In this document: positions 34,730 to 35,422 of the stretch, one piece after another | How positions within the stretch are numbered: the first letter of the stretch is position 1 | Layout: each line of letters opens with the position of its first letter | Sequence record: MK295203 | Length of the DNA stretch: 64,000 nucleotides | Origin: Escherichia phage vB_EcoM_005 | Strand: one strand, 5' to 3' | Made by a program: the position numbers and the translations under genes | Notes under the pieces: model-generated | What the model saw: the letters and a program-made list of their open reading frames with translations, nothing else | Told to the model about the DNA's origin: nothing | Database searches by the model: none

Positions 34730-34967
34730 ACAAACCGTTGAACAGAAACTGCAATCTGAAATCGTTATCCTGAAATCCCGTATCCTTGATACTCAGGACC
34801 ATGTCCAGCGCGTTAAAGCTGATTGCGACCTCCTTACTAAAGCCCTGGGTGAGATTGCTGCAGTAGTTGGCGTTACCGGTGATTCTGTTAAAATCGAAGA
34901 CCTGGTTGAAGCCGTTAAAGCCCTGGTTCCAGAAGCTTCCGACGAAGAATATTCTGACGAAGAATAA
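34722..34967 (+). CDS. 57A: tail fiber assembly chaperone gp57A
   Basis: [26 protein letters not shown]...[31 protein letters not shown] matches T4 gp57A. Confidence 0.85.
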
Positions 34968-35422
34968 TGAAAACCGAAGATTTTGCTCAAGGTCTATACG
35001 TTGCTGCAAAATTCTCTGAATTAACTTTAGATGCGCTGGAAAACCTTCAGCGCACTTTAAAGGTTCCTAATCCAGTTCCTCGTGAAAAATTCCATTCTAC
35101 AATCTGCTATTCAAGAGTCAACGTTCCATACACCGTTGCATCCGGAAGTTTTGAAGTTGCTTCGTCAGGACATCTTGAAGTGTGGAAACATGGCGATTCT
35201 CCAGTTCTGGTTTTAGTTCTCGATTCAGAGTATCTTAAATGCCGCCATCAGTATGCTCGTACCTTAGGTGCTACGCACGATTTTGATGATTACACCCCTC
35301 ATATCACCCTGTCTTATAATGTAGGACCTCTTACCTTTAGTGGAGATGTCCAGATTCCTGTTGTTTTAGACAGAGAATATAAAGAACCCTTGAAGCTCGA
35401 CTGGGCCGAGGATTTAAAGTAA
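34967..35422 (+). CDS. 57B: gp57B, 2H-phosphoesterase (Acb1-type anti-CBASS nuclease homolog)
   Basis: Two H-x-T/S motifs (HSTICYS, HITLSY); position after 57A; T4 57B is reported as Acb1. Confidence 0.7.

Follow-up and report, generated by a model that had tools for sequence, protein, structure and literature searches.

An orthologue of the T4 anti-CBASS phosphodiesterase Acb1 at the gene 57B position of the Dhakavirus-type Escherichia phage vB_EcoM_005

Gene 57B of Escherichia phage vB_EcoM_005 is almost certainly the Dhakavirus orthologue of T4 Acb1 (gp57B), encoding a metal-independent 2H phosphodiesterase of about 17 kDa. The gene, referred to here as acb1, was analysed within a stretch of 64 000 nucleotides of the phage DNA (sequence record MK295203; hereafter, the window). 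The evidence obtained directly concerns the integrity of the open reading frame, the family membership of its product, the retention of all the residues with a tested function, the predicted fold, the synteny of the locus and the purifying selection acting on it. It should be noted that an Acb1 orthologue at this canonical position was already known and that an identical protein is present in GenBank, and the analysis reveals no new biology.

Identification of the gene

Intact and 151 codons long, the open reading frame of acb1 opens with ATG and closes with TAA (Table 1). Translation and a pattern scan reproduced both the coordinates and the two motifs, HSTICYS and HITLSY, that had been given for it in a preliminary description of the window. 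The 151-residue product contains exactly two H-x-[ST] motifs in the pattern scan, H43-S-T (in HSTICYS, aa 43-49) and H112-I-T (in HITLSY, aa 112-117); a hydrophobic residue comes after each of them, which is also the case in 2H enzymes. By themselves, the two motifs are weak evidence and statistically not meaningful; for a protein of 151 residues with 6 His and 21 Ser plus Thr, the chance expectation is 0.82 such motifs, and on a Poisson estimate at least two would be found in about 20% of the proteins of such composition. The observation is real because the homology extends over the full length of the protein and does not reside in the motifs alone.

Table 1. Features at and around acb1, with positions counted from the first nucleotide of the window
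Feature	Position	Strand	Basis
Late-promoter box TATAAATA upstream of gene 4 (putative promoter)	31988..31995	+	Pattern search
Gene 1 (dNMP kinase)	33968..34729	+	Pfam PF21448 DNMK, E 8e-90
Gene 57A (tail-fibre chaperone)	34722..34967	+	Pfam PF17594 GP57, E 8e-28
acb1 (gene 57B)	34967..35422	+	
First catalytic motif H43-S44-T45 (T4 H44/T46)	35093..35101	+	Read directly in the sequence
Second catalytic motif H112-I113-T114 (T4 H113/T115)	35300..35308	+	Read directly in the sequence
C-terminal lid, aa 144-151, LDWAEDLK, including base-stacking W146	35396..35419	+	T4 alignment
T4-type early promoter GTTTACA-16 nt-TACTAT with embedded 10-bp hairpin	35429..35463	+	Promoter scan

Residues 8-149 of the protein match positions 1-144 of the 144 positions of the Pfam profile PF23474 (Acb1) with 198.2 bits (E 6.8e-59), which exceeds sevenfold the curated cut-off (gathering threshold) of 27 bits. 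Acb1 was the sole family found in the Pfam search at E <= 0.01, and in the NCBIfam search no model matched the protein. In the PDB (phmmer), the best sequence match is FBB1 Acb1, from an Erwinia phage (7T26/7T27, E 3e-59), and the two HxT motifs coincide in the alignment; a Burkholderia phage phosphodiesterase (9Q2G) is a distant second. When a profile HMM of 44 homologues was run with filters off against 964 six-frame segments, no second Acb1-like or 2H gene was detected in the window, the next-best match after the acb1 open reading frame having an E-value of 0.057. According to a tblastn search of 50,697 phage records, the gene is present in 1,470 of them; the identity is 100% in a single record (PQ561418.1), at least 95% in 50 (the Dhakavirus group) and 80-90% in 757.

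Active-site residues and predicted fold

Activity-guided fractionation led Hobbs et al. (Nature 2022, PMC9117128) to T4 57B as the gene of Acb1, and it is so named in that paper, as the preliminary description had it. The same authors solved the structure of FBB1 Acb1 with 3'3'-cGAMP, and described for T4 Acb1 an HxT/HxT catalytic tetrad (H44, T46, H113 and T115), four base-stacking aromatic residues (Y12, W74, F107 and W147), a glutamate (E141) contacting adenine N6, and a C-terminal lid (residues 145-152) closing over the ligand (PMC9117128). The H44A/H113A mutants are inactive, with H44A abolishing activity (PMC9117128), and activity is likewise abolished by deletion of residues 145-152 (bioRxiv 10.1101/2025.08.21.671373).

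The window protein aligns with T4 Acb1 (NP_049750.1) at 85% identity and without internal gaps. The T4 protein has one extra N-terminal Met, and residue numbers in the window protein are those of T4 minus 1. The catalytic tetrad (H43, T45, H112, T114), the base stackers (Y11, W73, F106, W146) and the adenine-reading E140 are all the same as in T4, and seven of the eight lid residues are identical (LDWAEDLK vs LDWADDLK in T4). Loss of a catalytic His motif, which the alignment to T4 Acb1 had been proposed to reveal if the assignment were wrong, was not found; both motifs are kept, with H43/T45 falling on H44/T46 and H112/T114 on H113/T115.

The tetrad columns do not vary among the 44 aligned homologues, the identity of which goes as low as 28%. 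The individual residues were also counted in 80 sequences, i.e. the window protein and 79 homologues. The catalytic residues are found in 79 (H43, one gap) or 78 sequences (T45, one Ser and one gap; H112 and T114, two gaps each), Y11 in 77 (two Phe, one gap), E140 in 74 (three gaps, and one each of Asp, Gln and Val) and W146 in 72 (seven gaps, one His). Where any of the 80 family members has a residue aligned with either catalytic histidine, that residue is His.

The differences from T4 Acb1 amount to 22 substitutions, most of which fall within aa 2-8 at the N-terminus, aa 56-58 and a hairpin loop (aa 75-80). Five of them lie in this loop, right after the base-stacking W73, where the window protein reads KHGDSPV and T4 KTQDGST. 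In addition, F42, beside the catalytic His, is Ile in T4, and E148 of the lid is Asp.

An AlphaFold2 model, for which the 44-sequence alignment was the input, predicts a compact 2H phosphoesterase fold for the window protein, with beta-rich 2H topology, a mean pLDDT of 89.1 and a pTM of 0.81. Low confidence is confined to residues 1-3 and 148-151 (pLDDT < 50 for the latter), and at 148-151 it is to be expected, as these residues are part of the flexible lid. In a Foldseek search of the PDB, the top matches of the model were 7T26 and 7T27 (TM 0.87/0.95, rmsd 1.1 Å over 136 columns, 66% identity), followed by the Burkholderia phage 2H phosphodiesterase (TM about 0.68); the cellular 2H enzymes were remote (TM about 0.5, rmsd 6-8 Å, 12-17% identity), E. 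coli LigT (5LDI) being found with an E-value of about 1e-4. The earlier proposal of an Acb1-type homologue is borne out by the identity to T4 Acb1, by the full-length match to PF23474 and by the superposition of the predicted fold on FBB1 Acb1.

Proposed mechanism

The function of Acb1 has been established in T4. Deletion of acb1 causes a loss of replication of more than 300-fold on CBASS-bearing hosts, the gene being dispensable otherwise, and Δacb1 lysates lose the cyclic-oligonucleotide hydrolase activity of infected cells (PMC9117128). Nine further Acb1 homologues all cleave 3'3'-cGAMP and cAAA, and c-di-GMP, cA4 and 3'2'-cGAMP are left uncleaved by the T4 enzyme (PMC9117128), which on the other hand triggers the Panoptes system by degrading 2'3'-c-di-AMP (bioRxiv 10.1101/2025.08.21.671373).

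At 85% identity to T4 Acb1, the catalysis, the substrate range and the anti-CBASS phenotype of the window protein are expected to be those of an Acb1. During infection, the protein would bind the second messengers of CBASS CD-NTases, which would be adenine-containing, 3'-5'-linked cyclic di- and trinucleotides (3'3'-cGAMP, cUA, cAAA, cAAG). In a U-shaped pocket, Y11, W73, F106 and W146 would stack on the bases, while E140 would read adenine N6 and the C-terminal lid (aa 144-151) would close over the ligand. The adenosine would be distorted, and its 2'-OH could then attack the 3'-5' phosphodiester under catalysis by H43/T45/H112/T114. The ring would open through a 2',3'-cyclic phosphate intermediate to give a linear product with a 3'-phosphate, metal ions taking no part. 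With the signal destroyed, the CBASS effectors would not be activated and abortive infection would be prevented. By analogy, the limits of T4 Acb1, i.e. the resistance of c-di-GMP, cA4 and 3'2'-cGAMP to cleavage, probably also apply to the window protein, and so, probably, does the liability to Panoptes through degradation of 2'3'-c-di-AMP.

Genomic context and expression

The window derives from a JS98-like T-even phage (genus Dhakavirus), the nucleotide identity over 12 kb being 92-95%. On the + strand, the genes follow one another in the order gp4, gp2, gp3, gp1, gp57A, acb1, two internal-protein genes, homologues of trna.4/.3/.2 and tRNAs. This is the same order as in T4 and JS98, so that the gene does lie at the T4 57B position, as the preliminary description had placed it. 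It is the last gene of a packed co-directional string (4-2-3-1-57A-57B) and adjoins, as in T4, a hypervariable internal-protein locus. The overlap is 8 nt between gene 1 and 57A and 1 nt between 57A and acb1, where the TAA stop codon of the one shares a base with the ATG of the other (TAATG). Such tight packing, with overlapping start and stop codons, favours co-transcription and translational coupling, and 57A and acb1 are therefore probably translationally coupled.

The 3' end of 57A carries a tandem duplication of 15 nt (TCCGACGAAGAATAT followed by TCTGACGAAGAATAA; 34935-34967, + strand) directly before the acb1 start codon. The stop codon of the first copy reads TAT, and therefore 57A ends in ...SDEEYSDEE and has 81 aa, compared with 76 aa in JS98 and in phage 04086.

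Upstream of the 4-2-3-1-57A-57B string there is a single exact late box, the TATAAATA at 31988, a putative promoter from which acb1 may be transcribed late. In the interval from gene 4 to acb1, the pattern search found neither an exact MotA-box (TGCTT[TC]A) nor a further TATAAATA. A scan of 32500-35422 predicted no terminator-like site ahead of acb1 on the + strand, and sigma-70-like matches near acb1 are no commoner than in shuffled sequence. As no promoter was identified immediately upstream of acb1, the timing of its expression in vB_EcoM_005 can be suggested only by analogy with T4, where acb1 transcripts have been classed as middle/late (bioRxiv 10.64898/2026.03.30.715471) and Acb1 activity appears about 15 min into infection (PMC9117128).

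On the 3' side, a T4-type early promoter starts 7 nt past the acb1 stop codon, at 35429. It serves the internal-protein genes and forms the boundary between the acb1 transcription unit and theirs. The hairpin located here, 3' of acb1 (35436-35463), has an RNA folding energy of -18.1 kcal/mol (z -5.4). The same architecture is found at three early promoters of the type GTTTACA...TGATACTATAG on the + strand (35429-35475, 35996-36040 and 44474-44520), in which the spacer pairs with the promoter's own -10/downstream region to form a hairpin of 9-10 bp. The hairpin at 44475 is a near-identical copy of the one 3' of acb1, and in the copy at 35997 the pairing is kept despite changes in both arms (GGTCTATAG/CTATAGACC to GGGCT.TAG/CTATAGCCC). 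Only read-through transcripts from upstream would contain the whole hairpin. These structures may serve to mark the 3' ends of transcripts coming from upstream, that of acb1 among them, or to stabilise those ends.

At two further early-promoter-like sites (50755-50805 and 58560-58610, + strand), the spacers CTCCTGTAG and CTCCAGTAG pair with the downstream sequences CTACAGGAG and CTACTGGAG, respectively, which resemble a Shine-Dalgarno sequence; each pairing amounts to -15.4 kcal/mol. Here, the ribosome-binding site of the next gene would be masked in read-through transcripts and free in promoter-started ones, a logic known for the lysozyme (e) gene and for soc of T4.

Downstream of acb1 lie two small internal head protein genes (35495-35719 and 35721-35993, + strand; PHROGs 8765 and 7673), whose products both begin with MK(T/S)YQEFITE(A/S), which we take to be a capsid-targeting peptide. 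In the original annotation of JS98, the interval of these two genes was left empty. Considering this empty interval, and considering that beyond their N-terminus the two products are unrelated to T4 IPI, the locus beside acb1 is variable, and possibly has an anti-defence role. Further downstream, the only tRNA genes (37316-37472, + strand) are those for Met (CAT) and Arg (TCT); at the same place, JS98 has an Asn gene in addition to these two, and the T4 set comprises eight tRNAs and two small stable RNAs. Apart from the tRNAs, no Rfam family reached threshold in the whole 64 kb.

Alternative interpretations

It might be argued that the open reading frame is a decaying, non-functional remnant, or that the motifs arose by chance in an unrelated frame, considering the frequency of about 20% calculated above for two H-x-[ST] motifs alone and the fact that T4 can do without acb1 on hosts that lack CBASS. 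Against this, the frame is full length, the whole Pfam profile is matched and the catalytic residues are intact. The pattern of substitution is also unlike that of a remnant. Between acb1 and its T4 counterpart, nucleotide identity is 73% and protein identity 85% (pS 0.76, pN 0.13), and because synonymous sites are saturated at this pS, dS is not computable and JS98 was used as the reference. From JS98, acb1 differs by 12 synonymous changes and one non-synonymous change (pS 0.117, pN 0.003); with so few non-synonymous differences, selection on acb1 is strongly purifying, and the gene is not a remnant. The Pfam match, the conservation of residues and the comparison with JS98 effectively refute the pseudogene and chance readings, whose probability we regard as negligible. 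A disruption of acb1 in Escherichia phage 04086, suggested by a BLAST match in two pieces, was likewise rejected, as the 151-aa open reading frame is intact there. At 1474-1600 of the record of that phage (OR842557.1), the end of 57A and the start of acb1 are directly duplicated over 99 nt, and the junction contains an N; the duplication is probably an assembly artefact. In the same record, the acb1 frame is unannotated, and 57A is labelled 'tail tube protein'.

The other two interpretations concern what an intact enzyme would act upon. Going by the current database labels, the protein would be a LigT-like 2'-5' RNA ligase or an RNA 2',3'-cyclic phosphodiesterase, with RNA ends as its substrates and, for instance, a part in tRNA repair. 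RefSeq records annotate 57B as 'RNA ligase', phrog_755 is described in the same way, the 2H fold is common to LigT, 5LDI appears in the Foldseek list, and tRNA genes lie 1.9 kb downstream of acb1. This function appears extremely unlikely. No LigT or 2'-5' RNA-ligase family is found in Pfam at E <= 0.01, LigT is structurally distant (TM about 0.5 at 6-8 Å and 12-17% identity, against TM 0.87-0.95 at 1.1 Å for Acb1), and the 85%-identical T4 protein is the cyclic-oligonucleotide hydrolase of infected cells that is lost in Δacb1 lysates. On the Pfam result and the structural distance the RNA ligase reading was rejected, and the label, which looks like an automatic transfer at the superfamily level, is a misnomer for acb1 both in RefSeq and in PHROGs. 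Alternatively, the protein may be a true Acb1 with shifted specificity, which for instance spares 2'3'-c-di-AMP and so avoids Panoptes, or acts on other cyclic oligonucleotides. It is the core that sets specificity, which varies within one viral 2H PDE structural group, and T4 Acb1 triggers Panoptes through degradation of 2'3'-c-di-AMP (bioRxiv 10.1101/2025.08.21.671373); moreover, the substitutions relative to T4 cluster in the loop after the base-stacking W73. Yet every named ligand-contact residue is the same as in T4, 85% identity is a small distance, far more distant homologues still cleaved cGAMP and cAAA, and the loop next to W73 varies across the whole family without known consequence. 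A shift of this kind is therefore very unlikely, and there is little likelihood, too, that the changes in the loop (aa 75-80), together with F42 and E148, retune the substrate choice of the Dhakavirus enzyme relative to T4 Acb1; if they did, poorer cleavage of 2'3'-c-di-AMP would allow CBASS to be defeated without tripping the Panoptes decoy-signal system. A canonical Acb1 thus remains the preferred interpretation.

Annotation and significance

The main value of these results is for annotation. The labels given to the gene in deposited phage genomes are inconsistent; many Dhakavirus and Tequatrovirus genomes have 'hypothetical protein' or, wrongly, 'RNA ligase' (as in RefSeq and PHROG 755), one phage record has 'RNA ligase/cyclic nucleotide phosphodiesterase', and the name Acb1 is absent among the phage-record matches listed; the UniRef cluster at 99% identity is named "Anti-CBASS protein Acb1". 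In Dhakavirus and Tequatrovirus, the gene should read acb1, anti-CBASS cyclic-oligonucleotide phosphodiesterase. For host-range prediction and phage therapy, an intact acb1 means that the phage should resist those CBASS systems that use adenine-containing, 3'-5'-linked cyclic di- or trinucleotides, and the precedent of T4 suggests a possible vulnerability to Panoptes-type systems, which sense the loss of a decoy nucleotide.

Relation to known Acb1 and 2H enzymes

T4 Acb1 (gp57B, NP_049750.1) is the founding anti-CBASS nuclease (PMC9117128), and its gene occupies the same position as that in the window, after genes 1 and 57A and before one or more internal-protein genes. The T4 protein has 152 aa and the window protein 151 aa, and the overlap between 57A and acb1 is 4 nt (ATGA) in T4 and 1 nt (TAATG) in the window. 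The corresponding position downstream of acb1 is occupied in T4 by the gene of IPI, a GmrSD inhibitor; the internal-protein genes of the window are not homologues of IPI and have only the N-terminal targeting peptide in common with it.

Among cellular proteins, E. coli LigT/ThpR and other 2H phosphoesterases have the 2H fold and two HxT/S motifs like the window protein. However, they act on RNA ends, while Acb1 acts on cyclic oligonucleotides, and the window protein has no Pfam LigT match.

The Acb1 of Erwinia phage FBB1, known in the apo form (7T26) and with the 3'3'-cGAMP product (7T27), is about 65% identical to the window protein and belongs to the same length class. It differs in having Phe in place of W73, which is Trp both in the window protein and in T4, and Tyr in place of F106, and in having one residue inserted in the loop that follows that strand. 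The 2H PDE-9 of Burkholderia phage BCSR5 (9Q2G, 9Q2Y) is part of the same viral 2H structural group and degrades 3'3'-cGAMP, but shares only 17-18% identity with the window protein in the structural alignment. The lid of PDE-9 is at the N-terminus instead of the C-terminus, 2'3'-c-di-AMP is a poor substrate for it, and it does not trigger Panoptes (bioRxiv 10.1101/2025.08.21.671373). The window protein clearly groups with T4 Acb1 and not with BCSR5 2H PDE-9.
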